Below are positions 3,998-24,224 of a stretch of DNA of 32,000 bases, piece after piece. The notes beneath the pieces were generated by a model. The model saw nothing but the letters and a program-made list of their open reading frames with translations. It was not told the DNA's origin and did not search any database. A program made the translations under genes and the position numbers. The DNA comes from Desulfotalea psychrophila LSv54 (GTDB lineage Bacteria; Desulfobacterota; Desulfobulbia; Desulfobulbales; Desulfocapsaceae), in NCBI RefSeq assembly GCF_000025945.1, contig NC_006138.1:240001-272000 (forward strand). The letters run 5' to 3'. Numbering within the stretch: the stretch's first letter is position 1; each line of letters opens with the position of its first letter.

Positions 3998-5320
3998 CTA
4001 TAGCTCCTCGAAACAGACCCTGTTGCGGCCATTCTCCTTGGCAAAGTAGAGGGCGACATCGGCACGGCAAATCATACTCGCCTCGTTATCGCCAGGATGA
4101 AAGCTGCTGACGCCAAAGGAACAGGTGACAGAACCAACCACCGGGAAATCATTTTCTTCAACGCTGACACGAATCTTATCGGCCAAGATCCCTGCCCCTT
4201 CAAGGGTGGTTTCCGCACAGATAACAAGAAACTCTTCCCCGCCCCATCTGCCAACGGTATCAACCACCCGAGTACTCTCCTTTAAGATTCGCGCTATCTC
4301 CCGAATAACCTGATCACCCACCTGGTGGCCGTGATTATCATTTACACTCTTAAACTTATCCAGATCCAGCAGGATAAGTGAAACGGATCTCTTATAACGT
4401 TGGGCCTGTTCTACCTCATAGAGGAAGACATCATCGAGCCTGAAACGGTTATAGAGGCCGGTCAGAGAATCAGTAATAGAGAACAGCTCCAGCCTGGAAG
4501 TATAGATCTCAATTTCATCCTCATAGGAGAGCATCAGCCTGCTAATCTGCCTTTCAAAAAAGACCATAACGGCAACTGAGAGAAGAAGGGCAAGGAGAGA
4601 AATAGAAAATGAATTGTTCTTATGTCTCTCATATGTCCTCCTCATCTTTCTCGTTTCACTCTCTATAAGCTGATCAACATCATCGAGATAAACACCGCTG
4701 GCAATAATCCAATCATAGGGTTTATAGAGTTTGGCAAAGGAGAGCTTATGGGCAATCTCCTCCGAATTGATCTTTTTAAAGTAGTATTCAAAATAGACCT
4801 CTCCATCCTTTTTTACACCATTGAGTTCATCTTCATAGGGGCGATTACCCCGAATATCGGTCATATTGGTGGAGACCCACGTCCCCTCCCTCTGGGGCAT
4901 ACTTGGGTGGATCTGGACTCGTCCATATCTGTCACCACCGTCATAGTTAATAATACGGTTCACCCATATATAACCATCATCGATAAGGCGCAGGTTTCGA
5001 ATATGCCTGCTAACCCGTTCTATGCAGAGAGACTCTATCTCCTCTTCGCTAAGATTTTTTCCAACATTTTGATATCTTAACTCAGCTCTCTCATCTTCGA
5101 TGAGATAGATTGTCCGCTCCACAGCATTACGCAAAAATCGTTTTTTCTCATTGATGATCCCCCCTGACAGCTGTTTTATTTTCCTGGTGTACTCTTCCCC
5201 CAGACTGCGGGTGTAGATCGAGGAGAGGAGAACGGTAACCAGAATAATTACCGACATGGAACCGACATAAAAATAGCGGAGGATTGCACTTTTTTCTATA
5301 CGTATTCTATTGGATTTCAA
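3998..5320 (-). CDS. membrane diguanylate cyclase: TM - single Cache (sCache_2-like) sensor - TM - GGDEF
   Basis: GGEEF active site (RWGGEEF) with an RVVD I-site five residues upstream. Periplasmic block GYIWVN...HP...KLSFAKLYKPYDWIIASGVYLDDV is typical of sCache_2. Two hydrophobic helices flank it. The start is TTG, so the exact start is uncertain. Confidence 0.85.
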   Translation of the reverse strand: MKSNRIRIEKSAILRYFYVGSMSVIILVTVLLSSIYTRSLGEEYTRKIKQLSGGIINEKKRFLRNAVERTIYLIEDERAELRYQNVGKNLSEEEIESLCIERVSRHIRNLRLIDDGYIWVNRIINYDGGDRYGRVQIHPSMPQREGTWVSTNMTDIRGNRPYEDELNGVKKDGEVYFEYYFKKINSEEIAHKLSFAKLYKPYDWIIASGVYLDDVDQLIESETRKMRRTYERHKNNSFSISLLALLLSVAVMVFFERQISRLMLSYEDEIEIYTSRLELFSITDSLTGLYNRFRLDDVFLYEVEQAQRYKRSVSLILLDLDKFKSVNDNHGHQVGDQVIREIARILKESTRVVDTVGRWGGEEFLVICAETTLEGAGILADKIRVSVEENDFPVVGSVTCSFGVSSFHPGDNEASMICRADVALYFAKENGRNRVCFEEL

Positions 5321-6698: not shown

Positions 6699-7811
6699 CT
6701 AGTCAAAGATCATGACCAGATAGGCGCAAAAGAGTATCAGGTGAACCATGCCGTGAATGATATTTGTCTTACTGCTGGAAAAGGTCATTATTGACACAGC
6801 CAAGGTGCTTACCAGTAGAACCGATTCTACCGGCTCAAGGCCGAGTATTAACCTGTTACCGGTGTACAGACTGATCAGCAAAACTGCCGGCACGGTCAGA
6901 CCGATTGTGGCAAGGGCAGAGCCAAGACAGATATTGACAGAACGCTGGAGCCTGTCAGAGACAGCGGCCTTAATGGCAGCGACACCTTCAGGGGCAAGAA
7001 CTAAAACGGCAATGAGTACCCCACCAAGGGCCACAGGAAAGTCGAGGGCAGCGATTGTATAGTCGATAATTCCGGCCATCCTCTTGGAGAGGAGAACAAT
7101 GGGTAACATAGTAAAAAGCAGGAGAAAGACATGATAGGTCACCGAGCGAACGGTGAGCATACCATGGCCATGCCCCTCCTCAAGGTCATCGCCGGATATC
7201 CTGAAAAAGCCCTGATGGCGCATGGTCTGGATGGCAAGAAAGGTGCCATAGAGGGCAACAGAAGCCAGGATGCCGAATATCATCTGCAGGGTGGAGTAGG
7301 TCCCAGCCTCTGTTGAAATGGTAAAGTTGGGCAGAAATAAGCTGAACACGGCAAGCGGAATCAGGACAACAAGAAATGTATTGGCTCCCTGCAGGTTATG
7401 CGCCTGCTCCAGATGACGGAGACCTCCGCAAAACAAGGAAATGCCAATCAGACCGTTGAGCACTATCATCAACACGGCAAACATCATGTCACGACCAAGG
7501 GTCGGGTTTTGGCTTCCGGTCAACATAACGGCTGTGATCATCACCACCTCAATGCTGATTACCGCAATGGTCAGAATGAGGGTGCCGTAGGGTTCACCAA
7601 GCCTGATAGCCAGACAGTCCGCATGCCTTACCACCCCAAAGGAGAGCCAGAGCATGGTAAGGAAGAGCCAGCAAAAGAGGAGTGTCGGCAAAATCGTCCC
7701 AAACAGGTTTGTCAGCCAGCCCCGGCCAAAAGCCAGAAAGCAGACAAGGGTAAGCAGACCGAAGAGGAGACCAGCCTCCTCCTTTACCAGCACAGCCATG
7801 GCTCGTCTCAT
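6699..7811 (-). CDS. chaA: calcium:proton antiporter, CaCA superfamily (ChaA-like)
   Basis: 370 aa with about 10-11 hydrophobic helices. Alpha-repeat-like GEPYGTLILTIAVISIEVVMI, with a second repeat in the C-terminal half (ALATIGLTVPAV). Size matches ChaA. A strong RBS GGGAGGGATAGG directly abuts the ATG. Confidence 0.75.
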   Translation of the reverse strand: MRRAMAVLVKEEAGLLFGLLTLVCFLAFGRGWLTNLFGTILPTLLFCWLFLTMLWLSFGVVRHADCLAIRLGEPYGTLILTIAVISIEVVMITAVMLTGSQNPTLGRDMMFAVLMIVLNGLIGISLFCGGLRHLEQAHNLQGANTFLVVLIPLAVFSLFLPNFTISTEAGTYSTLQMIFGILASVALYGTFLAIQTMRHQGFFRISGDDLEEGHGHGMLTVRSVTYHVFLLLFTMLPIVLLSKRMAGIIDYTIAALDFPVALGGVLIAVLVLAPEGVAAIKAAVSDRLQRSVNICLGSALATIGLTVPAVLLISLYTGNRLILGLEPVESVLLVSTLAVSIMTFSSSKTNIIHGMVHLILFCAYLVMIFD

Positions 7812-8240
7812 CCTATCCCTCCCTCTTTTTTATACAGATAGATGCATCCTCTTTATCAGAATATCAGGACTGGACAAAAAAAAGCAAAAGCTAAACAACA
7901 AAATTTAACCACTGCTTGGCGAACACAGAGCTTCTTTGGCTAAAGAGCAGCAGTGAAACGGAGCGGAGTGGCAAGGGCAAATTAGCCATAGCGATTTTTG
8001 GAGAAAAAGCGGCCTTGTTGCATAGATAATTTCAAGAGCCTGGAAGCAATGCTCTGTAACATCTCCCCAGGGCTGCCAAAACTTTATTCAGAAAAAATTG
8101 TATGCAACCAGGCCATGAAAAAGTGACAGGTAGAGCCAAAGCCAAGACGTTTTTGAGATGATTTGCTCTTATTCAATCAAGCCAATAGCCCGCTATATCT
8201 TTGACTTATTTTGGTCGGCCCTTTCTCTGTAACACTTTCA

Positions 8241-11827: not shown

Positions 11828-12295
11828 ATGGCTAGAGTGAAGGAAATAAAAAAAGATTACGGCTTTTTTGGTATTGGCATACTGAATAATGTTAACGAAT
11901 TAAATATTGGTACCCTGTGGCGATCTGCATATATCTTGGGCGCGAGCTTCATTTTCACCATTGATAAAAAATATAAAACACAGAGTAGCGACATTACCTC
12001 GGCCTGGACAAAGATTCCACTGTACCACTATAAAACATTTGCTGAGTTCAAAGATAATTTACCCTTTGCCACAAAAATCGTTGGGGTAGAGATGGGGGAG
12101 AGCTCCATTGCCATAGGAGATTTTTCCCATCCAGATATGGCGGTATATCTTTTGGGCAATGAACAGCGCGGATTGAGCAAAAAAATTACCGACCAGTGCC
12201 ACTCTCTTATACAATTACCTGGAGAATTTTCCCTGAATGTTGCGGTGGCGGGAAGTATTGTCATGTATGATCGGCTCAACAAAGAGGTTAGATAG
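11828..12295 (+). CDS. SpoU/TrmH-family RNA 2-prime-O-methyltransferase (SPOUT), minimal single-domain form
   Basis: SPOUT motifs VGVEMGE, LLGNEQRGLS and IPGEFSLNVAVAGSIVMYD-like. The ATG at 11828 is preceded by GAAGGGA. The listed ORF begins at TTG 11813. Confidence 0.8.
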   Translation: MARVKEIKKDYGFFGIGILNNVNELNIGTLWRSAYILGASFIFTIDKKYKTQSSDITSAWTKIPLYHYKTFAEFKDNLPFATKIVGVEMGESSIAIGDFSHPDMAVYLLGNEQRGLSKKITDQCHSLIQLPGEFSLNVAVAGSIVMYDRLNKEVR

Positions 12296-12351
12296 CTGTC
12301 AGCTCTCAGCTCTCAGCTCTCAGCTGTCAGCTGTCAGCTGTCAGCTGTCAG
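12294..12351. repeat. heptanucleotide tandem array, 8 units: AGCTGTC (AGCTCTC)3 (AGCTGTC)4 + AG
   Basis: Counted directly. It begins inside the TAG stop codon (12293-12295) of the SpoU gene. Confidence 0.95.
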
Positions 12352-12700
12352 AAACAGCAAATTAACCACAGAGGATGGGAGGTCACAGAGATTTTTTTAG
12401 GTAAAGGACGAAAAAACAGATACTAGATGCTAGAAAACACCAACAGATATTAGCTCTAAGTGTACAACAGTAGCCTTGCAAACCCTCAGCTTTTTCAAGG
12501 AGAAGATAAGGAGGGGGATATCCTGCCCTATGCAAACCTTAGCGAAAAGTAAAAGGTCAATCTGTTCCCATATTTTTTTGTGATTCGCGCTTTTTCTCGC
12601 ATCTCGTATCTCGTATCTATCTCTTCTTTTTAATTCATTGCCTCTGTGTGCTCTGTGCTCTCCGTGCTCTCTGTGACCCCAGTGGTTCCGCTCTATTTCA
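12352..12700. repeat. mosaic of dispersed intergenic sequence modules, forward then inverted
   Basis: Forward: ttaaccacagaggatgggaggtcacagagatttttttaggtaaaggacgaaaaaacagatactagatgctagaaaac. Then tcaatctgttcccatatttttttgtgattcgcg. Inverted: ctcgcatctcgtatctcgtatc and cctctgtgtgctctgtgctctccgtgctctctgtg. Confidence 0.7.
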
Positions 12701-13288
12701 TTAGTTACAGAACTGCTCTTCACAGGGAATGCCATCCCCATCACCATCCAATTTTACGTCTGGACAATTGCTCAGATAAAACTGAGCCTCCTGACAGGAG
12801 GTCATCTCTGGACAATGTATTTTACCTGCACAGCTATAGTTTAACGAGAGTTGCTCTCTCTGCACAAAAGTCTCGTCGATACCTCCAAGCGGTATCCCTG
12901 TTACCGTCTGATCAGCACTAGCCTGCAATCGATTATAAAAGAGACTAGCAAAGCCGATAAGCAGCGCCAGGCAGATAACAAAAATCCTCCAACTATTTTT
13001 TGTTTCCTGCTTTTTGTAGGGCCTCTGCCCTGTCGGTTGCGAACGCTCTCTTCTCTTTCGCAATGGCAGACCTTTGATTATTGCATCAACGGCCTTGGTC
13101 TTGCCATTATGATCAGTACGAAGACAATAAGAGATGGTGTCTCCCACCCTGGGCGCTCTGGAGATGGCTCTGTCAAAAGCTGAAATATGGACAAAAATAC
13201 TCTTAGCACTCTTTTCTGACTTGATGAAGCCAAAGCCTCTTTCACCAACCCATTTTTCAATTTTTCCTTGTAGGCGAACTGTTGCCAC
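12701..13288 (-). CDS. cold-shock domain - TM helix - Excalibur (Ca-binding) domain protein
   Basis: N-terminal CSD (GKIEKWVGERGFGFIKS...IFVHISAF). Central hydrophobic helix WRIFVICLALLIGFASLFY. C-terminal Excalibur signature CPDVKLDGDGDGIPCEEQFC. GTG start with AAGGA 6 nt upstream. Confidence 0.8.
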   Translation of the reverse strand: MATVRLQGKIEKWVGERGFGFIKSEKSAKSIFVHISAFDRAISRAPRVGDTISYCLRTDHNGKTKAVDAIIKGLPLRKRRERSQPTGQRPYKKQETKNSWRIFVICLALLIGFASLFYNRLQASADQTVTGIPLGGIDETFVQREQLSLNYSCAGKIHCPEMTSCQEAQFYLSNCPDVKLDGDGDGIPCEEQFCN

Positions 13289-13317
13289 TGTTTATCCTTT
13301 TTTGAGATGAAGATATT

Positions 13318-13390
13318 AGATGCTAGATGCTAGATGCTAGATGCTAGATGCTAGATGCTAGATGCTAGATGCTAGATGCTAGATGCTAGA
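13318..13390. repeat. heptanucleotide tandem array (AGATGCT)10 + AGA
   Basis: Counted directly. It lies 30 nt upstream of the GTG start (13288, minus strand) of the CSD-Excalibur gene. Degenerate units gagatga/agatatt sit on the proximal side. Confidence 0.95.
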
Positions 13391-13781: not shown

Positions 13782-14068
13782 TTATGGAGATAGAGGCATG
13801 GGCCTGTATTCTTCCATAGCCTTTTCATCTGCTATTACCGGAAAAACAAGTTCCCCTTCTCCAGCCTCTGCGGTAATTTTCCTATATGGTTTTGGTTCAA
13901 AATAATCACGGCCTTTACGGCCAACGACTAACATAGCAGAAAGGGCATCAATCGCCATGCGCTGGGTCTCTTCTATGCTTTCACCACAGGTTAACGCCCC
14001 TGGTACATCCGGAATGCGCACAGACCATCCGCCACTATTCGGGTAAAAATTGCGTGATAGATATCCAT
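13782..14068 (-). pseudogene. hicB: HicB-family antitoxin (UPF0150-like), frameshifted after codon 8
   Basis: GGAGGA-tcaa-ATG at 14068 opens MDIYHAIF. The conserved continuation YPNSGGWSVRIPDVPGALTCGESIEETQRMAIDAL... is in the -1 frame. The switch maps to the T5 run (plus-strand A5 at 14045-14049); adding one T restores MDIYHAIFYPNSGGWSVRIPDVPG. Confidence 0.65.
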
Positions 14069-14219
14069 TTGATCCTCCTATATAACCAACTCAGGCCCCG
14101 TTCGGGCGATAATTATTTTAAATTTTGGTTCCCATGCCCAGCACAGCCATCGTTGCTCACAGGACACAGCTTTTTATGCTCCCATGCAGAAAATTGTTAT
14201 GAAAAATTCGATATTTTCA

Positions 14220-14891
14220 TTATTTCGAATATTTTTTTATCACATACTTCGCTAAATATTTTGTGTCGTTCTTAGTTCCAGAGTAGCCGAATGACATTGC
14301 AATAGTAATTACTGAAGCATTTTCAATTAACCCTCTACACTTTTGAAAAAAGAGATCTCGTTTTTCTTGAGACCAAAGCTCTGATTCTAAGTACATACCA
14401 GAGTCATTAAAAACATCAATATCTAAATCAAAAGCATATTGTTTTGATTTTTTTACAGCACACATATTTTCGATTTCCTGATGGATGTATTGCTTTGCAT
14501 TGTAAGTTTTTAAAAAGTCAGGTGAAAAAGCTATTTCAGTTCCTTTTTGTCTACAATAAAAGTGAACCTCATCAAAGATCCTCTTAATTATTGCAGGAGC
14601 TATAAAACCATCTTTTGAAATATAGTCTTCACTTACCAAGCTAAATAAAGCGGTTAATTCAGCTTGAGATATGTCAGACAATGCTTTCTCACATTGAAAA
14701 TCATTTATAGCATCCCAATGATAATCAATATGATACAAGCTTAATGGTAAGCTGGTTTTCACTCGATCGATATAGCTAATCCATGCCCAAAAAGCCCATT
14801 TGTGATCATCCATGAGCCAAACATTTGGATATATTTCTTTGCAGAAATCATCACTGTTAACAATGTAATCATCAAATGTTTTCATAGACAT
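14220..14891 (-). CDS. hypothetical protein, possibly UPF0489-like (arginase/deacetylase-fold metal-dependent hydrolase)
   Basis: The ATG at 14891 is preceded by GAGGA; the listed ORF extends to 14963. Motifs WLMDDHKWAFWAW and LYHIDYHWDAI resemble the DHH...H.D.H.D pattern of UPF0489. The family assignment is from memory only. Confidence 0.5.
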   Translation of the reverse strand: MSMKTFDDYIVNSDDFCKEIYPNVWLMDDHKWAFWAWISYIDRVKTSLPLSLYHIDYHWDAINDFQCEKALSDISQAELTALFSLVSEDYISKDGFIAPAIIKRIFDEVHFYCRQKGTEIAFSPDFLKTYNAKQYIHQEIENMCAVKKSKQYAFDLDIDVFNDSGMYLESELWSQEKRDLFFQKCRGLIENASVITIAMSFGYSGTKNDTKYLAKYVIKKYSK

Positions 14892-15005
14892 AGTGTCCTC
14901 ATATACATAGCGCCTGCAATAAAGTGTGCGCCCACTGGATATTCGAAACCAATTACATTCCATACCCTAAATTCCCAGTGTTACAGCATCACATTGATGA
15001 CTTTG

Positions 15006-15833
15006 TTAGAATCTATCAAGTAGTGAGATATTTTGAGATAGAGCTGGTGATTTCTTTGGTAAAGTTAAAAGAATATGACTAATTTGTTCAGAAAAGTATC
15101 TAATTAAACAATTTTCATTTCCACAGTTAATGCGAATTACAAACTGTAAGCACTCATCGGATTTACTAATGCTTGACAAGAAGTTAACACCTATATAGCC
15201 ACCGCTAAAGTCCACAACACGAAATCTGAACATTTTAGATATAGCATCTAAATTTAAGTTGTTACTTAGCCTCTCATGACTAACAACAAATGTCATGAGG
15301 TTTTTCTCTAAGCTGTACTGATATTTCATTCTGTGCCGACTCTTAATGAGAATAGACACTACCCTCATAATGTCTTTCAAATTACTACCCGCATCGTTCA
15401 TTGTATTGCTAAGATTTTTTTGTTTTCCGGTATACTTAGACAAGACATTATCTCTTTTCCCATTCATACTCTTATGACCTTGCCGTAACGCTTTAACCCC
15501 TTTTTTCAACACACCTTCATTATAAGAATGCTCTATATACAATTCAATATGTTTAATTGCATAATCTAAAGAATCCAATGAAAACATTTCTGTCTTACCG
15601 TCACCAACAGAATAATCTAGCGAATAACTTGAAAGGATTAGATGCAATGATTTTTCAAGAGTAAAAACATCATCGATACAAATCTCTAAGGAATAGGATT
15701 CTTCGTAGTCGGGCTCCCCCCACCATTTCTTCAAACTTATCATTCGACTAGAAATATCATTTGCTTTTCCAATTTTAATTGCTCTGTTTTTTTGAAAAAC
15801 CAAGATATATAAATTCGTTTTTTTCATATCCAT
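15006..15833 (-). CDS. T5orf172 / MUG113 (GIY-YIG-like) domain protein with unknown C-terminal region of about 170 aa
   Basis: N-terminal LYILVFQKNRAIKIGKANDISSRMISLKKWWG ... LEKSLHLILS ... GKTEMFSL matches the T5orf172 pattern (hydrophobic strand, KIG, R..L, E..lH, EWF-like). Confidence 0.6.
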   Translation of the reverse strand: MDMKKTNLYILVFQKNRAIKIGKANDISSRMISLKKWWGEPDYEESYSLEICIDDVFTLEKSLHLILSSYSLDYSVGDGKTEMFSLDSLDYAIKHIELYIEHSYNEGVLKKGVKALRQGHKSMNGKRDNVLSKYTGKQKNLSNTMNDAGSNLKDIMRVVSILIKSRHRMKYQYSLEKNLMTFVVSHERLSNNLNLDAISKMFRFRVVDFSGGYIGVNFLSSISKSDECLQFVIRINCGNENCLIRYFSEQISHILLTLPKKSPALSQNISLLDRF

Positions 15834-15937
15834 ACCATTTGATTATAACGCCTATAACAAGGTGGGTGAACGCTGAACCTACCAAACCAAGAATGCCGAG
15901 TATAACGCGTCACCTTAATTGCCTTATTACACCTTTC

Positions 15938-16789
15938 TTAATTGGTTGTTATTTTTTTATACTCATGAATTGATTCAGCTATTGTCTGCTTTGACTTAAA
16001 CTCAGGAATACAAGAGTAACATAGCCAACAATTAATTATCTCCGGGTTGCCACGAAACTCGATGAATGATTTAAATTTAGCGTATCTACGCAGTTCGCTT
16101 GAATCGGTATATATCCTTGTTTTTATATATGCCTTCTCGTAAGTGATATAGCAATAAAAACAATATACATACGGAATAATCGACACAGAGAGTAGCATAG
16201 GGACGAGAAAGTCACGTAAAGTTGATATATTGAAAAACTTGTCTACGTCATCACTAACATATGACAGGCTATCGATGAACAAATAAATACCGAGTATGCT
16301 CAATGCTATACCAAAGACTGATTTAACCTTTTGAAATTTAGGGTCTGTTGAAGCTACAACACTACAGCAGGCAATAAACGTTGACACTGTTACCAGTATT
16401 AGTTCGGTTATGAAACCGTAAGAATGGAATGCAACAAGGAATTCAATTAACACAATAACTTGAAACTGTTGCTTCAGCGCTCTTTTAAGATACTGCACCC
16501 CACTGTCAACATTGACTGTGTTGGATAATTGGACACTACCAACAAAAAGAAACCAGACTACTGTATTTTTCACCTGAGATGTATCCCAGATAGCAACCTC
16601 TCTTAAACACCACACAACACCGACAGTAAATAGCGAAAAAATCACGAACGGTGTCACTATTTCTCGCTGAAAAAATACCTTGATTAGTTGTACAAATGCG
16701 TTTCTAACCCTAGACTGCCGCAAACAGTAAAGCAACACCACTGATACCAGCAACGCTGATGCCAGCTCACGATTATTGAATACTTCCAA
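15938..16789 (-). CDS. polytopic inner-membrane protein (about 6-7 TM helices), no recognisable family
   Basis: 283-aa ORF with repeated hydrophobic helices (ALLVSVVLLYCL, VTPFVIFSLFTVGVVWCL, VVWFLFVGSV, VIVLIEFLVAF, LILVTVSTFIACCSVV, FGIALSILGIYLFI, LVPMLLSVSIIPYVYCFYCYI). TTG start with GGTGA 6 nt upstream. Confidence 0.6.
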   Translation of the reverse strand: MEVFNNRELASALLVSVVLLYCLRQSRVRNAFVQLIKVFFQREIVTPFVIFSLFTVGVVWCLREVAIWDTSQVKNTVVWFLFVGSVQLSNTVNVDSGVQYLKRALKQQFQVIVLIEFLVAFHSYGFITELILVTVSTFIACCSVVASTDPKFQKVKSVFGIALSILGIYLFIDSLSYVSDDVDKFFNISTLRDFLVPMLLSVSIIPYVYCFYCYITYEKAYIKTRIYTDSSELRRYAKFKSFIEFRGNPEIINCWLCYSCIPEFKSKQTIAESIHEYKKITTN

Positions 16790-16915
16790 TACAAATCACC
16801 TATATCAATTCTAGGCATAACGCCCAATTAAGCTGCACCCAACGCAATGATCAAGCTACAACAATGTACCTCAATCACTATACCAATTGGAGCTGAAAAT
16901 GCCATGCGTTGGGAA

Positions 16916-17521
16916 TCATGGTAAAACTAATTTACAGATCTGTGTTGCCAACTCAAGCCACCACGTAATTAGACTAACAGAGAGCCCAACTACAAAAAGA
17001 GAGAAGGTTAGAGGGATTTTGTCCCTAAGAAAGCTGAAATGTTTCTGCTCGTCAACCCAATCGATCTGGTGTTGCCAAAAAAATTTGTAGTGCGCATACC
17101 AATCACTAAACAGGATTTGCTTGCTTTGGCATGAACTATAATATTCACCTTGTAGCTGAGAAAGTTGGTTTTCCAATATCTCAATATCAGACCCATCTGA
17201 GTTTTTTGTCTTGCGATATAGTTTTGCAAGGTCATTGTATAATTGTGTTAATTTTATACCATAACTTTCATATGCTGTTTTCTTATGATCGTAGAGTGAT
17301 ATATACAATCCAACAATACCTAAGACAACAAATGATGCAGACAGAAACTTAGTTGATAAGCCTTCAAAGGCAAGTGCGTAAATGCCGAATGCCATTGAGA
17401 AAAAGCTAATAAACCCAGGTGTTTTCTCTACAATATCATAGGTTGCAAAATGTTTTTTTGCTCCAAAACCAACGTTGTAACCAGTCTCTGCGATATGTTT
17501 AAGCAAATCTTCTTTATTCAT
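16916..17521 (-). CDS. SLATT-domain membrane effector (SMODS/SLOG-associated 2TM family, SLATT_5-like)
   Basis: AETGYNVGFGAKKHFATYDIVEK motif, followed by two adjacent TM helices (GFISFFSMAFGIYALAF; FLSASFVVLGIVGLYISLY), a helical region and a third C-terminal helix. The ATG at 17521 lies 5 nt after GAGG, and this RBS overlaps the upstream gene's TGA stop (GTGAGGcagaaATG). The listed ORF start at 17566 would overlap the upstream gene by 38 nt. Confidence 0.7.
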   Translation of the reverse strand: MNKEDLLKHIAETGYNVGFGAKKHFATYDIVEKTPGFISFFSMAFGIYALAFEGLSTKFLSASFVVLGIVGLYISLYDHKKTAYESYGIKLTQLYNDLAKLYRKTKNSDGSDIEILENQLSQLQGEYYSSCQSKQILFSDWYAHYKFFWQHQIDWVDEQKHFSFLRDKIPLTFSLFVVGLSVSLITWWLELATQICKLVLP

Positions 17522-17528
17522 TTCTGCC

Positions 17529-18815
17529 TCACTTGATTGGTACGTAAATTCTATTTTTGGCAACAACTACATTGTTTTTAATAGCATAACATTCAACTAT
17601 ATGCTCGCCTTTAAAATCCGTAGACTCCCTTCGTTCTTTTTTCCCGCTATCATCAACAATTTGACCACATATACAATTACGTTTTTCAGCTTCTACTCCA
17701 CGATTAAGCACTTTCCATTTAATGGAATAAGGTTTAGGGACATTTATATAAGATATATTAAAGTATAGTTTTTTATTAGCTAATAAAGGGAAATTTTTTG
17801 CTAGCATCTCAGTAAGAAATCGCTTTTGATAGCCATGTTGTGTTACTTCGCATTCCAGTTCTAAATCATATCGAACATCAATTGGAAACTTCTCTTCAAT
17901 AAATTGTTCGGTATCCTGCCATGTGCGTGCAGATTTTAAAGCTTCTTCGACATGTTTTGATTTTGCAGGGAATGGACGGCCATAAACTTTTTTCCATTTG
18001 TCATGAGCACTATTTCCATCCCCAGCTTCAATAGCTTTTAAACATAGCTCATAGGCTTTTTTGGCTTTCTTTTGGAATTTTTTCTTGACTTTAACATTCT
18101 GGCCACTGCCAAGGGCCTTATAATGGTCTTGACTTGGTTGCTCCATGAGATATTTAAAAAAGTCTCTACTCATCCAATCGTAGAACAGGAAACTCTTGTC
18201 ATCATAATCCGATGTTGATTTTAGGAAGTTATGAGCCAAAGTATCGATTAAAAGCCCACCCATACCGACGCCATGTTTGTTTTTCCAGGCTCTTGCCATC
18301 TTACAAAGCTTACGAAGATTCTTGCTTTTCTGATCAACAAAATCCTTCATCGCCGTCATTTCATCACGTGGTTTAGTGATTTTCCAGCTTCCACCGCTGT
18401 AGGTATCAGGATATTTAAAGCTTTCATCATCCTGTTCAAATACAGGCTGTACTTCTACTTGAAAACCTCTATACAAAACTTGTACAACAAGCCGATCAAC
18501 CTTAACTTCAGTGGTAGGATATCTAGCTTTAATCGCGTCTTTTGTATCCAACAACAATTTGGATTGTTTGTTATTTTTATAATCATCCCATTTATTCTTG
18601 GGCATAAGATACAACATGTCAAGATCAGAAATTCCTTTAACCCCCGTCCATCGACCATAAGACCCGACTTGTAATCTATTTTCTTTCTTTGAATCAGTCT
18701 CTCGGAACTTTTTATTTAAGCTTGAAGTAATTTCCCCATATTTCAAGCTAATTTTACCAGCATTATCAGTGACTAAGTTAGCAAGAAGATCCTGAAACAT
18801 TTCTGAAATTGTCAT
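17529..18815 (-). CDS. SMODS-family nucleotidyltransferase (predicted second-messenger oligo/dinucleotide synthetase) with AGS-C-like C-terminal domain
   Basis: Pol-beta NTase signature VGSYGRWTGVKGISDLDMLY (G51-S52, D64, D66), with a probable third acidic residue in FQVEVQP. SMODS-typical block YPDTYSGGSWKITKPRDE...LCKMARAWKNKHGVGMGGLLIDTLAHNFL. A beta-rich tail of about 130 aa follows (YSIKWKVLNRGVEAEKRNCICGQIV...). Confidence 0.75.
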   Translation of the reverse strand: MTISEMFQDLLANLVTDNAGKISLKYGEITSSLNKKFRETDSKKENRLQVGSYGRWTGVKGISDLDMLYLMPKNKWDDYKNNKQSKLLLDTKDAIKARYPTTEVKVDRLVVQVLYRGFQVEVQPVFEQDDESFKYPDTYSGGSWKITKPRDEMTAMKDFVDQKSKNLRKLCKMARAWKNKHGVGMGGLLIDTLAHNFLKSTSDYDDKSFLFYDWMSRDFFKYLMEQPSQDHYKALGSGQNVKVKKKFQKKAKKAYELCLKAIEAGDGNSAHDKWKKVYGRPFPAKSKHVEEALKSARTWQDTEQFIEEKFPIDVRYDLELECEVTQHGYQKRFLTEMLAKNFPLLANKKLYFNISYINVPKPYSIKWKVLNRGVEAEKRNCICGQIVDDSGKKERRESTDFKGEHIVECYAIKNNVVVAKNRIYVPIK

Positions 18816-19359
18816 AATTACCCTTGTTTTTATCTTGTAGTTAACCGGTTACGTTAACGCAGCTACTTTCAGCCCTCTATTTTCCATATATCTCAATGTC
18901 AGCAAATGTGGCATGGAAAAACATAGCTCACCCTTCAAGCCGGAGCAGGCATCAGAACAACCACTCCAACAATCTCCAGCCCAACATAATTTTCCACAAT
19001 AGACCCAATAAATTACCAGCAAATCTCCTGACAAAAAACCACCTCTATCGCTTTAACAGGAAAGGTGTGCTTTTTCAAAGGAAAATCCTAATATCAATAC
19101 ATTGCGTGATGGGATGACAAGCAGGACTCTGTTAAGGGCAAGGATGGGTAGAAAAAAAAGCAGAATGACGCAGCACACCTCCCCTCGCCAAGGTGAGGAG
19201 TTAGGGCAAAGAAGAGGCAGGGGCGGTGGTTAAGGAATGGATCGAAATAATTGGCAAATAAAGATCTTTAATGGTTGGGCAGAGATAGCCCATCTGATCT
19301 CATTTCAAGAAACCGACCTTGGCTGGGCAAGTCCCATTGGCACGGAGCTGAGCACCGGA

Positions 19360-20659: not shown

Positions 20660-21257
20660 AGGACTCCGATATGAATTTCAATTGAGGACAACAGCTGCCA
20701 TAGGGTGGTCGCCACTGAAGACTGCCCCCCAAATGCGGCCTGCAGCAGAGTCTATTTCTACCTATGACCGCAACCAACAGACAAAATGGAAATACTGCCT
20801 CCCTTGCAGCCAAAGTAGAGACCAGGGCCTCTTCCTGACCTCCCCTCCACATTTAAAATGGGCGCCATAGGTGAGAGCATCTTCCCAGGCAAAAAGATCC
20901 TGCAAGGAGTTAACAGGACTAAAGCGACCATGTAAAGTCTTTTGATTAATATCAGTACATTGCAAAAAAGCAGAGTGGCGCAGCTCACCTCCCGGCCTCC
21001 CCCTTTAAAATAAGGGGGAGGAGAAAAGGGGGAGGAGGGAAGATGAGGAGTTAGGACAAAGGAGAGACAGAGGCAAGGATGGGGAGGCGCAGGAGGAGTA
21101 AAAAATCCATATTGCCTGAAAAAACGAGATCTTGTATTCTAGCTTTTATAGCCTCTTACCTTTGTCCCATCTTTTTTAGCCATTCCAACCCAGGCAAAAC
21201 AAATTGATAAAGAGTTCTTTACCCCCAGCAATGAAGGCCTCAACTATAGGGATGTCA

Positions 21258-24224
21258 ATGCGCAAAACAAAATTATACCTAGCTCTTGCCAGCTTAATTC
21301 TGGCCACCCCAGCCCACTCCTATGAAACAATTACTGTTGGCAATTTTGAAGCACAACTTCTTGCACCTGGAGAATCAGCATACGCCATAGGAGCAAAAGC
21401 CAGTGGAGCTGGTTATACAGAAGATTATCGAGAAACGGTAACAGGAGCCGAAGCGTGGACCCAGGGACATAGGGATGCTATTAGCAGAAGCCTGCAAACA
21501 CTAGAACAGAGTTTTGCCATGGGCAACCCAAATAGAAAAATGCAAATTGCCTTTACCTTAGAGAAAGGGGAATATCTCGGGATGTCACTTGGCACCCTAA
21601 TTTTCGACCAAGCTCAGCAGAATATTATCGCAACAGGAGAGTTGCTTCTGCGTAATAATATCCCTACAAACAATGTCCTAGGTAGCGTAGACGATATTAT
21701 CATAATGTTCACCTCAGTTCCTCTGCATTACGGCCCTGAGGCTCCTGGCCACGGCCAATATGACTTCCAAGCAACGGTAACCCACGAAATACTCCATGCC
21801 ATGGGTATTATGAATGGTAATGCCAGAGATGGAGGGTACCCAAATGGGATGACAAGATGGGATTCCTTGTTAAAAGATGTTTATGGTGGCACTCCAGCTC
21901 CAGGGAATCCCCTTCCTATTAGCACTATTGGTAAACTAGGTACTGTTTTTTGGACTGGCGCAGCTGCCAACGCTACCTATGGAGGAGCTGTCCCCATACA
22001 GACTTTTACAAATGCATATAGGGAAGGTAGCTCCCTTGCCCATCCAGCCCCTCCAGGAGAATTGATGTCCTATATGGGGAGTCCTTTAGATGCTCCAAGA
22101 GCGCCGAACAAGCTCCTGCTTGATATGTACCGAGATATGGGCTGGAATATAAATGATGCCTACTATAATAGTTTTGGCCCCACCTATTACAGCAACGCTA
22201 GCCACATAAGCAATACGAATGACTTCGCCACAAGCCATAGTTATACCTACGCTATGTACGTTAATGGCAATTATAATCTTATTGACCAGAGTGGTAATTT
22301 AAAAACAACGAAGGAGCAATCGAACGCCCTATATGTATATGGAAATGGAAACAAAATTAGAGTGAACGGCACACAGTCTGCCGATGCAAATTACTCCCAC
22401 GCACTCTACGCTTTTGGTATAAAAAACCAGATATTTATAGAAGGCGAGGGGACTCTGACCGCAAAAGGAGCTGGTTCTGTTGGTCTTTTACTTTTTGGTT
22501 TTGATAACTCCATTTTTCACTCTGGAACTATCCTGGCGAGTGATGAAGCAACAGCTATTAGGATTGACAATCATCGGGCTACCTGGGGATACCGCCTGAA
22601 TACATCACTGCACCTCCAAACCGGATCAAAGATAGTTGGGGATATTATTAACACTGACTCTACGAAGGCGGCAGATATGACCTTTGGTCGTAAATATGCC
22701 AGTGATGGGAGCTATAGCCCTGACCCTAATTTCAATTTTTCCTACAATGATGAGATACGAGGGGATTGGAATTATGACTTTCATAGTGGTACGGTAACAT
22801 TTGCCAATACACTCAATCAGCATGAAGGTACAATATTAACAGGTAATGGTTCAATTATTGGTGATGTTGATAGCGCGGGTATTATCGCCCCGGGTAATTC
22901 TATTGGCAAACTAACAATTAACGGAAATCTTAGCCAAACCAGTAGTTCGGATTTACAGATAGAATTTGGTGACGGTGGCTACGATCAGCTTGTGGTGAGC
23001 GGTACAGCTCATCTTGACGGCTCACTTTCATTAATCCCCATTGGTTATCTTACTCCGGGTACCCATCAATTCATCAATGCAGGTGCCCTTGCCGGTAACT
23101 TTGCCACTGTAAATAACTTTTCCAGCAGTATCCTGCAAACATCAGCTTCCAGTTTCAATCCCAGCAATTTTAATCTAGTGCGCAATAGTTACGCATCAGT
23201 AAGTGAAAGCCAGCAGCAAAGTCTAGCCAGTTCTTTTGATAGAGCTCGACCGACTGCAAGCGGAGATATGGCAGATACTCTCAATCTGATGGATCTGATG
23301 AATCTTACCGATATCAGGCAGGCAGCAGACGATTTTTCGCCTTATTTCTACAACTCTGTTACCACAGCAATTTTAGAAAACATCAGAACAAGATCAACTT
23401 TCTTGCAAAACAAGATAAGAGGAGATGAGACAGATCGTCAATCGCCACTCTGGTTCTCGGGCTACGGCGGTACTACCCAGTACGACAAGACAGTCACCAG
23501 CAACGATTTTAAAACCAAATATTCCGGTTTTATGCTGGGCTTTGACAGACAATTTGCATCTGGATTTCAGCTAGGAGCCGCAGGCGCTTTCACTGATTTT
23601 TCTTTCAAGGAAAAAGCCACCACCAGCAAGGCAAGGGGTTCTGTTTATGATGGCTATCTTTACGGTTCATGGTCACCACAGGCAAATAATGCGTTCTACC
23701 TGCAATCAACTCTAGGCATTGGCCTTACTGACTCTAAAACCAATCGGAATATACCCTTTCTAGATAGAACAGCCACTAGCGACCACGATGCAATCCATTA
23801 CTCTGCCTTTCTTGGCGGTGGTTACAAACAGCAGATAGGCAATTGGTCTCTTGAGCCACGGGCAGGGCTTGAGTACATCAATCTTGATGAAGACGGCTGC
23901 ACAGAATATGGAGCAGGAGCCGCCTCCCTTGCTATCAACTCAAAAGATTCCGACGCATTGGTAAGTTCTCTTGGGGTTGAAATCAGTCGTACTATTGAGC
24001 TCAATAATGGCTCGTTAGTGCCGAGCTTTCGAGCTGATTGGTTCCATAATTTTTCTGCCAAGGGAGAAAATACCATCGCCACCTTGCAAAGCGGTGAATC
24101 TTTCAGTGTTGATGGTCGCACGGCAAGCGAAAATGCCCTGGAATTAGCCCTTGGTTTAAGGGTACTGGTCAGCAATAAGCTACACGGTTATTTTGAATAT
24201 CAATACACCTTTGCCGACAATTAA
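21258..24224 (+). CDS. autotransporter (type Va) with N-terminal HExxH metalloprotease-like passenger; copy 1, ends at a premature in-frame TAA 15 codons before the paralog's stop
   Basis: Signal peptide MRKTKLYLALASLILATPAHS. HEILH at 21783-21797. Autotransporter-associated beta-strand repeat GNSIGKLTINGNL...LVVSGTAHLDGSLSL. C-terminal beta-barrel with alternating aromatic strands. The start was chosen by alignment with copy 2; the listed ORF opens at 21204. Confidence 0.85.
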   Translation: MRKTKLYLALASLILATPAHSYETITVGNFEAQLLAPGESAYAIGAKASGAGYTEDYRETVTGAEAWTQGHRDAISRSLQTLEQSFAMGNPNRKMQIAFTLEKGEYLGMSLGTLIFDQAQQNIIATGELLLRNNIPTNNVLGSVDDIIIMFTSVPLHYGPEAPGHGQYDFQATVTHEILHAMGIMNGNARDGGYPNGMTRWDSLLKDVYGGTPAPGNPLPISTIGKLGTVFWTGAAANATYGGAVPIQTFTNAYREGSSLAHPAPPGELMSYMGSPLDAPRAPNKLLLDMYRDMGWNINDAYYNSFGPTYYSNASHISNTNDFATSHSYTYAMYVNGNYNLIDQSGNLKTTKEQSNALYVYGNGNKIRVNGTQSADANYSHALYAFGIKNQIFIEGEGTLTAKGAGSVGLLLFGFDNSIFHSGTILASDEATAIRIDNHRATWGYRLNTSLHLQTGSKIVGDIINTDSTKAADMTFGRKYASDGSYSPDPNFNFSYNDEIRGDWNYDFHSGTVTFANTLNQHEGTILTGNGSIIGDVDSAGIIAPGNSIGKLTINGNLSQTSSSDLQIEFGDGGYDQLVVSGTAHLDGSLSLIPIGYLTPGTHQFINAGALAGNFATVNNFSSSILQTSASSFNPSNFNLVRNSYASVSESQQQSLASSFDRARPTASGDMADTLNLMDLMNLTDIRQAADDFSPYFYNSVTTAILENIRTRSTFLQNKIRGDETDRQSPLWFSGYGGTTQYDKTVTSNDFKTKYSGFMLGFDRQFASGFQLGAAGAFTDFSFKEKATTSKARGSVYDGYLYGSWSPQANNAFYLQSTLGIGLTDSKTNRNIPFLDRTATSDHDAIHYSAFLGGGYKQQIGNWSLEPRAGLEYINLDEDGCTEYGAGAASLAINSKDSDALVSSLGVEISRTIELNNGSLVPSFRADWFHNFSAKGENTIATLQSGESFSVDGRTASENALELALGLRVLVSNKLHGYFEYQYTFADN

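Follow-up and report, generated by a model that had tools for sequence, protein, structure and literature searches.

A gene pair for an AGS-C-fused cyclase and a SLATT_6 membrane effector in Desulfotalea psychrophila LSv54 is very probably an anti-phage system of a catalogued kind

We analyzed a stretch of 32,000 nucleotides from Desulfotalea psychrophila LSv54 (RefSeq assembly GCF_000025945.1, contig NC_006138.1, positions 240,001 to 272,000 of the forward strand), which is referred to as the window in the following. Two adjacent genes on its minus strand encode a nucleotidyltransferase with a SMODS catalytic domain and a C-terminal AGS-C domain, and a SLATT_6 membrane protein. An earlier reading, made from the letters without database searches (the sequence-only reading), had placed these genes at 18815..17529 and 17521..16916 and had regarded them as a pair resembling the cyclic oligonucleotide-based anti-phage signaling systems (CBASS). 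Both sets of coordinates were confirmed. The two proteins show strong matches to the Pfam families SMODS, AGS_C and SLATT_6, the latter two over the full profile, and PADLOC files them end to end as a CBASS cyclase and a "2TM" effector, which supports the CBASS-like assignment. The features of the locus are collected in Table 1.

Table 1. Features of the cyclase-SLATT_6 locus and its surroundings, numbered from the first position of the window unless another locus is named
Feature	Position	Strand	Description	Basis
CD-NTase (SMODS) nucleotidyltransferase with C-terminal AGS-C	17529..18815	-	428 aa, ATG start, stop codon included in coordinates	open reading frame, Pfam, PADLOC
N-lobe, Pol-beta nucleotidyltransferase core	18342..18815	-	residues 1-158	Pfam SMODS extent
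Catalytic residues	G51-S52 18660-18665; D64 18624-18626; D66 18618-18620; E121 18453-18455	-		alignment
Helical C-terminal lobe of the CD-NTase core	17970..18341	-	residues 159-282	AlphaFold2 helices, Foldseek span
Variable linker of low confidence	17919..17969	-	residues 283-299	pLDDT <50, column entropy
AGS-C domain, beta-rich	17532..17918	-	residues 300-428	Pfam AGS_C, AlphaFold2
Gene junction	17519..17532	-	GTGAGG 17532-17527 holding the cyclase TGA 17531-17529; 5-nt spacer; SLATT ATG 17521-17519	
SLATT_6 membrane effector	16916..17521	-	201 aa, stop codon included in coordinates	Pfam, NCBIfam, PADLOC
Transmembrane hairpin of the effector	17291..17413	-	residues 37-55 and 59-77, 3-residue turn	hydropathy; AlphaFold2 helices 37-51 and 57-76
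Third hydrophobic helix of the effector	16961..17017	-	residues 169-187	hydropathy 1.88; AlphaFold2 helix 171-199
Low-GC island carrying the pair (context, not part of the system)	14000..19250	.	GC 0.33-0.385 against about 0.43-0.48 in the flanks	
Other island genes	14220-16789	-	UPF0489 (247 aa), T5orf172/GIY-YIG (275 aa), 283-aa protein	
DUF2188 gene of related loci	L020-L025 5758-5991; L001 5685-5918; L009 7917-8150		positions within the related loci	

The catalytic domain of the cyclase matches the Pfam family SMODS (PF18144) over residues 1-158 (3.4e-42, 144.9 bits against a cut-off of 26.5), and the PADLOC CBASS cyclase model PDLC00796 covers residues 1-428 (1.6e-194). The CBASS cyclase and cGAS models of NCBIfam match weakly, below threshold. 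The sequence-only reading had described a Pol-beta nucleotidyltransferase core with G51-S52, D64-x-D66 and an acidic residue within FQVEVQP. All of these are present: the motifs read in the protein are G51-S52, D64-L-D66, E121 within FQVEVQP, YPDTYSGGSWKITKPRDE and MARAWKNKHGVGMGGLLIDTL. In an alignment of 44 relatives with identities down to 47%, G51, S52 and the acidic triad of D64, D66 and E121 are invariant, and E121 is the alignment partner of the third catalytic aspartate in Pseudomonas aeruginosa CdnD. An invariant catalytic signature across 44 sequences argues for selection on catalysis.

We modeled the cyclase with AlphaFold2 from an alignment of 48 sequences (mean predicted local distance difference test, pLDDT, of 72.5; residues 14-66 and 283-299 poor). 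A Foldseek search of this model against the PDB returned bacterial cGAS/DncV-like nucleotidyltransferases (CD-NTases) throughout the top 50 matches (CdnD, CdnC, BfCdnB, DncV, CdnE), with P. aeruginosa CdnD (PaCdnD, 6p8u) as the best one (E 8e-10, target-normalized TM-score 0.66). The alignments to CdnD and CdnC span about 300-330 columns, and a two-lobed CD-NTase fold was found with target-normalized TM-scores of up to 0.67, residues 14-66 of the model having a pLDDT below 50. The C-terminal lobe is modeled with helices at residues 161-181, 187-199, 209-225, 248-263 and 268-278. A family profile of the cyclase run against PDB sequences retrieved PaCdnD at 5e-13, but not CdnB. As judged from sequence family and predicted fold, the window cyclase is a member of the CD-NTase family. 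The contrast drawn earlier, with the protein being of SMODS family rather than a cGAS/DncV-type CD-NTase, does not hold, since the predicted fold matches bacterial CD-NTases alone, DncV among them, and since the CBASS cyclase and cGAS models of NCBIfam match, if weakly.

The catalytic lobes are the most conserved part of the protein (column entropy 0.82 bits), followed by AGS-C (1.17 bits) and the linker (2.35 bits). The roughly 130 beta-rich residues at the C-terminus, which the sequence-only reading had taken for an AGS-C domain, indeed match Pfam AGS_C (PF18134) over its full length (1.8e-49, 167.5 bits, profile positions 1-129 of 129, residues 300-428), and this part of the AlphaFold2 model consists mostly of strands (block pLDDT about 76-93). 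Its most variable patches by column entropy are residues 331-340, 351-360 and 391-400. The C-terminal motif G-x-H-x-V-E-C-Y-A-I-K-N (window 17532-17620, AGS-C residues about 399-428) is near-unchanged in distant relatives from Kaiserbacteria, Aequorivita and Dyadobacter. Because it is kept at only 23-32% overall identity, this motif, with H405, E408 and C409, points to a putative functional site beyond a purely structural Ig-like scaffold. A sequence-based search found no solved structure related to AGS-C. We also considered an Ig-type disulfide between C322 and C409 and rejected it; the conservation of C322 does not extend to distant members, which leaves AGS-C without a conserved cysteine pair.

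The junction of the two genes, read directly, is ...ccaatcaagTGAggcagaaATGaat, in which the stop codon of the cyclase sits within an SD (Shine-Dalgarno)-like GAGG, 7 nt ahead of the SLATT ATG. This is the arrangement reported in the sequence-only reading, with the TGA inside the Shine-Dalgarno GTGAGG of the next gene. The open reading frame of the effector extends over 17566..16916 (minus strand) from a TTG; with the ATG at 17521 as the start, the product has 201 aa. In the public annotation, the gene product is a 215-aa "unknown protein" (P0121) with a start upstream of the cyclase stop. We prefer the ATG at 17521, which had also been chosen before, because SLATT_6 homologues are typically 201 aa long and because the SLATT_6 models of both Pfam and NCBIfam align from the first residue of the product that starts at this ATG. 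A terminator scan of the region gave nothing above the shuffled expectation.

The effector is matched by the full-length profiles of Pfam SLATT_6 (PF18169; 3.2e-81, 271.5 bits against a cut-off of 27.1, profile positions 1-176 of 176), by NCBIfam SLATT_6 (NF033630; 1.1e-80, 269.5 bits against a cut-off of 100), and end to end by the PADLOC effector model "2TM" (PDLC00695; 5.3e-86). The AETGYNVGFGAKKHFATYDIVEK motif is present as quoted in the sequence-only reading, and its description of a SLATT domain with a hairpin of two transmembrane segments stands, except that the third hydrophobic helix had been omitted. The last positions of the Pfam model coincide with the beginning of this helix, which then extends past the model. 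It is kept in the 35 aligned effector homologues except for a few C-terminally shortened ones; its sequence varies, as expected for an anchor, and the short tail beyond it carries a frequently conserved cysteine. The invariant residues of the effector form two clusters, one in the N-terminal helix (Y15, N16, G18-F19-G20, T27, D29, K33, P35) and one before the third helix (S139, A143-H144-Y145-K146-F147, W149, Q152, W155, E158-Q159, D167-K168). The invariant basic and aromatic SLATT_6 residues (K33, K81, H144, K146, K168, W149 and W155) all lie outside the transmembrane segments, and the positive-inside pattern predicts that both clusters, which are basic and rich in aromatic residues, face the cytoplasm. 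The AlphaFold2 model of the effector monomer is all-helical (pLDDT 72.6).

We subsequently asked how this gene pair is arranged elsewhere. Scanning a single genome for each GTDB species, we found 13 close cyclase relatives with 47-72% identity. An intact SLATT_6 gene follows directly downstream of the cyclase in nine loci and a frameshifted one in another (L008); a SLATT_4 gene is the partner in three loci, upstream of the cyclase in two and downstream in one, and a DUF6161 membrane protein accompanies the cyclase in a single locus (L014). These partner counts add up to 14, compared to the 13 relatives counted. At L008, from an Opitutae metagenome-assembled genome (MAG), SLATT_6 is split over two frames (7311-7851) by a frameshift or an assembly error, and the cyclase is intact. 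All 12 homologous operons examined have a stop-to-start gap of 1-11 nt, and that of the window measures 7 nt. Three further operon types with the architecture of an AGS-C cyclase and SLATT_6 were found in Escherichia coli genomes, and the nearest relatives of the cyclase, at 77% identity, belong to unrelated phyla. Cyclase and SLATT genes are paired across phyla with the same tight spacing. Varied effectors on a constant cyclase represent effector swapping. Together with the conserved tight junction, this is the usual CBASS pattern, and it supports co-translation of both genes. A phage collection contained only distant matches (29% identity) and no close copies, and the DNA of the island that carries the pair was not found in PLSDB.

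The neighborhoods of these relatives are equally informative. In five lineages (L001, L005, L008, L009, L010), the pair interrupts a type I restriction-modification (R-M) operon in the order hsdM-hsdS-[cyclase-SLATT_6]-hsdR, and two plasmid matches overlap or adjoin an annotated hsdS-type gene. The cyclase-SLATT_6 cassette apparently uses the type I R-M operon as a recurrent insertion site. The pair was also found beside HEPN genes on an E. coli plasmid and within a lambdoid prophage, and a single Vibrio cassette occurs in six different contexts, beside HipA, TIR and SIR2 genes. These R-M, plasmid, prophage and defense-gene neighborhoods provide strong guilt-by-association for a role in defense and for horizontal mobility.

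In some lineages, the pair is accompanied by a 77-aa DUF2188 gene that is absent from the window. In the Vibrio cassette (six different contexts) and in E. coli PM22, it precedes the cyclase by about 8-10 nt, and in a Methylophilaceae MAG it lies downstream of SLATT_6. Its product matches the PADLOC candidate defense family PDC-S16 (3e-36) and may be an accessory or regulatory part of the AGS-C/SLATT_6 CBASS subtype.

Taken together, we consider it very probable that the locus is an intact type I CBASS anti-phage pair of the catalogued kind. The E-values of the family matches, 3e-42 to 3e-81 in Pfam and 5e-86 to 2e-194 in PADLOC, mean that these matches are not due to chance. The assignment to type I follows from the lack of ancillary CBASS genes nearby: the genes next to the pair encode a GNAT protein, a multi-transmembrane protein, T5orf172 and UPF0489, and nothing in their Pfam annotations resembles Cap2/Cap3 (type II), HORMA/Trip13 (type III) or QueC/TGT/OGG (type IV). 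The pair resembles an ordinary, catalogued CBASS rather than a new system, because close E. coli relatives have already been shown to block phages (see below).

A mechanism can be proposed on this basis. During phage infection, a late cue tied to virion assembly would relieve the inhibition of the cyclase, possibly via AGS-C. The activated enzyme would make a nucleotide second messenger that binds to the conserved cytoplasmic part of SLATT_6, which would then oligomerize and breach the inner membrane. Death or arrest of the host cell before the release of phage progeny, that is, abortive infection, would be the outcome.

Several points weigh against this reading. The active-site strands of the cyclase are poorly modeled, with residues 14-66 below a pLDDT of 50. 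No structural relatives of SLATT_6 were matched in the PDB, all Foldseek E-values being 0.6 or higher for a model with a pLDDT of 72.6, and neither Pfam nor Foldseek gave a recognizable nucleotide-binding domain in this protein. Upstream of the cyclase, there is no conspicuous sigma-70-like promoter, and promoter-like matches in the region are no commoner than in shuffled sequence in a scan that used the E. coli-type consensus only. The probable assignment to cyclase clade F discussed below is derived from E. coli relatives. Finally, the function of the D. psychrophila pair is deduced from its family and relatives, the locus being known from sequence alone. We therefore weighed three other explanations, all of them much less likely than a type I CBASS.

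The one that survives best is a silent remnant, acquired horizontally and intact-looking, but no longer expressed in this genome. The 690-bp spacer upstream of the cyclase indeed contains no convincing promoter, and the frameshifted SLATT_6 of L008 indicates that decay does occur in the family. But neither reading frame of the pair is truncated, both retain all conserved residues, and a scan restricted to the E. coli-type consensus is not informative for the phylum of this host. We regard a silent remnant as improbable.

Still harder to sustain is a toxin-antitoxin-like module without a diffusible signal, in which the cyclase-AGS-C protein checks or triggers SLATT_6 by direct contact and the nucleotidyltransferase chemistry is not the signaling step. 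The tight coupling of the genes would favor stoichiometric co-production, SLATT_6 has no recognizable nucleotide-binding domain, as mentioned above, and for clade F enzymes no product has been observed in vitro. However, the full catalytic signature is invariant in the 44 sequences, and the partners of this cyclase family are three unrelated or distantly related membrane effectors (SLATT_6, SLATT_4 and DUF6161), the gene order varying for SLATT_4. A diffusible ligand accommodates the varied effectors and the changing position of SLATT_4 more easily than a specific protein interface. Moreover, a SLATT effector of type VII Thoeris is found in operons with a TIR protein that makes cyclic ADP-ribose (cADPR), by which it is inferred to be activated. 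Regulation by protein contact alone is very unlikely in our view.

A housekeeping second-messenger module that serves the physiology of D. psychrophila (ion flux, envelope stress) rather than phage defense has the smallest chance of all: the pair is known in this organism from its sequence and the window encodes other signaling proteins, e.g. a Cache-GGDEF diguanylate cyclase (3998-5320), but the pair lies in a low-GC island, its nearest relatives (77% identity) are found in unrelated phyla, other relatives reside in R-M operons, plasmids and prophages, and E. coli operons of the same architecture restrict phages.

With type I CBASS as the preferred reading, the locus adds to the AGS-C/SLATT_6 subtype one further intact and compact (1.9 kb) case, here from a cold-adapted sulfate reducer, and standard defense-system annotation would label it type I CBASS. 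It is rather unlikely, though less so than any of the three explanations above, that new chemistry is hidden here, and then in the family as a whole and not in this locus in particular: a novel nucleotide signal, an active AGS-C site, or sensing between SLATT_6 protomers. The signal made by the AGS-C-fused cyclase, probably of clade F, may differ from the CBASS products known so far. The near-invariant AGS-C motif could be a ligand-binding, metal-binding or even catalytic site that gates the cyclase, and SLATT_6 may read the signal at an undescribed helical, basic and aromatic cytoplasmic site between protomers. What the signal molecule is, what AGS-C does and how the membrane effector is gated are questions that concern the entire subtype and are easier to address in the E. 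coli operons already in use.

The pair shares its low-GC island with three further genes downstream of it. The 283-aa protein has at least five transmembrane segments and matches no family. The T5orf172 protein has four relatives among 5.8 billion clusters; one of them is encoded on a small, plasmid-like RepA/ParA contig without the UPF0489 and multi-transmembrane genes. PADLOC gave no matches in these three neighbors, and they were rejected as extra components, having no homologues in any related locus. No flanking direct repeats marking the ends of the island were found, and the window contains no tRNA or Rfam matches. At the island edge, a 79-aa open reading frame (13782-14021) shows a weak HicB-like antitoxin match (3.6e-4, below the Pfam cut-off) and may be a toxin-antitoxin remnant. 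The heptanucleotides AGCTGTC (x8.3, 12294-12351) and TAGATGC (x10.6, 13317-13390) form two tandem repeats, perfect or nearly so, that flank the minus-strand genes at 12430-13288, which comprise a 105-aa open reading frame and a gene for a cold-shock-domain/Excalibur protein. The TAGATGC repeat is located 29-102 nt upstream of the start of the latter, and both repeats may be phase-variable or regulatory. Just past the island, two tandem paralogous autotransporters are encoded at 21204-24224 (1006 aa) and 24681-27722 (1013 aa), with 82% mutual identity.

Among known systems, the closest solved structures are P. aeruginosa CdnD and E. coli CdnC of type III CBASS (6p8u, 6p82, 6p80), by profile (5e-13) as well as by fold (E 8e-10), and they share the same catalytic motif. 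In contrast to the window cyclase, these enzymes are regulated by HORMA/Trip13 and carry no AGS-C, and the identity is about 16-20%. On the effector side, ThsH of type VII Thoeris is likewise a SLATT-superfamily membrane protein for which activation by a small nucleotide-derived signal is inferred; its predicted assembly is a filament that spans the membrane and has basic pockets between protomers on the cytoplasmic side (bioRxiv 10.64898/2025.12.03.692087). SLATT proteins are believed to form oligomers that breach the membrane (bioRxiv 10.64898/2025.12.03.692087). The likeness of ThsH to the window effector is at the superfamily level, and its signal is cADPR from a TIR protein, not the product of a CD-NTase.

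Type I CBASS with Cap15 or other transmembrane effectors (EaCdnB-Cap15, PspCdnB06-Cap15) also combine a lone cyclase, often fused to AGS-C, with a membrane-disrupting effector and no ancillary genes. Cap15 senses the nucleotide by a C-terminal beta-barrel, whereas SLATT_6 is all-helical and without such a domain. A type I CBASS on a lactococcal plasmid (PMC11381338) is similar in pairing an AGS-C cyclase with a SLATT-superfamily effector. This effector is a SLATT_4 protein, unlike that of the window, and three relatives of the window cyclase use SLATT_4 as well. The lactococcal cyclase is nearest to BfCdnB (7LJO) by HHpred, whereas the family profile of the window cyclase finds CdnD and not CdnB. 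SLATT4 and SLATT6 are both listed in the most abundant class of CBASS effectors.

The best counterparts of the window pair are the two-gene operons EcCdnF04-SLATT6 and EcCdnF05-SLATT6, in which an AGS-C-fused CD-NTase is also followed by SLATT_6. An Ig-like AGS-C domain is fused to roughly 40% of the cyclases in type I CBASS (Richmond-Buccola et al., bioRxiv 10.1101/2023.05.21.541620). Both of these AGS-C-fused operons were cloned in that study, and EcCdnF04-SLATT6 restricted phages of five families at least 10,000-fold. Virion-assembly escape mutants selected on other operons showed at least 10-fold cross-resistance against the AGS-C-containing F04 and F05 operons, and no in vitro product was seen for any clade F enzyme (bioRxiv 10.1101/2023.05.21.541620). 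The sequence-only reading had considered the signal, trigger and gating of the AGS-C/SLATT subtype not experimentally established. This holds for the nucleotide product of clade F, but phage restriction by the subtype has been published. The hosts differ, with an enterobacterium on the one side and a psychrophilic sulfate reducer, whose locus is known from its genes, on the other. The three E. coli operon types that we retrieved, which may or may not be the tested CdnF04/F05 operons, have cyclases with 48-63% identity to that of the window (two with 52-63% by BLASTP, the third with 48% in the alignment). Their effectors are 42-61% identical to the window effector (two compared) and their stop-to-start gaps measure 5-9 nt compared to 7 nt in the window. 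All three share the best PADLOC model of the window cyclase, PDLC00796, at full length. Because of this identity and the shared model, and because the published E. coli SLATT6 operons are labeled F04 and F05, the window cyclase is probably a clade F enzyme of the CdnF type.

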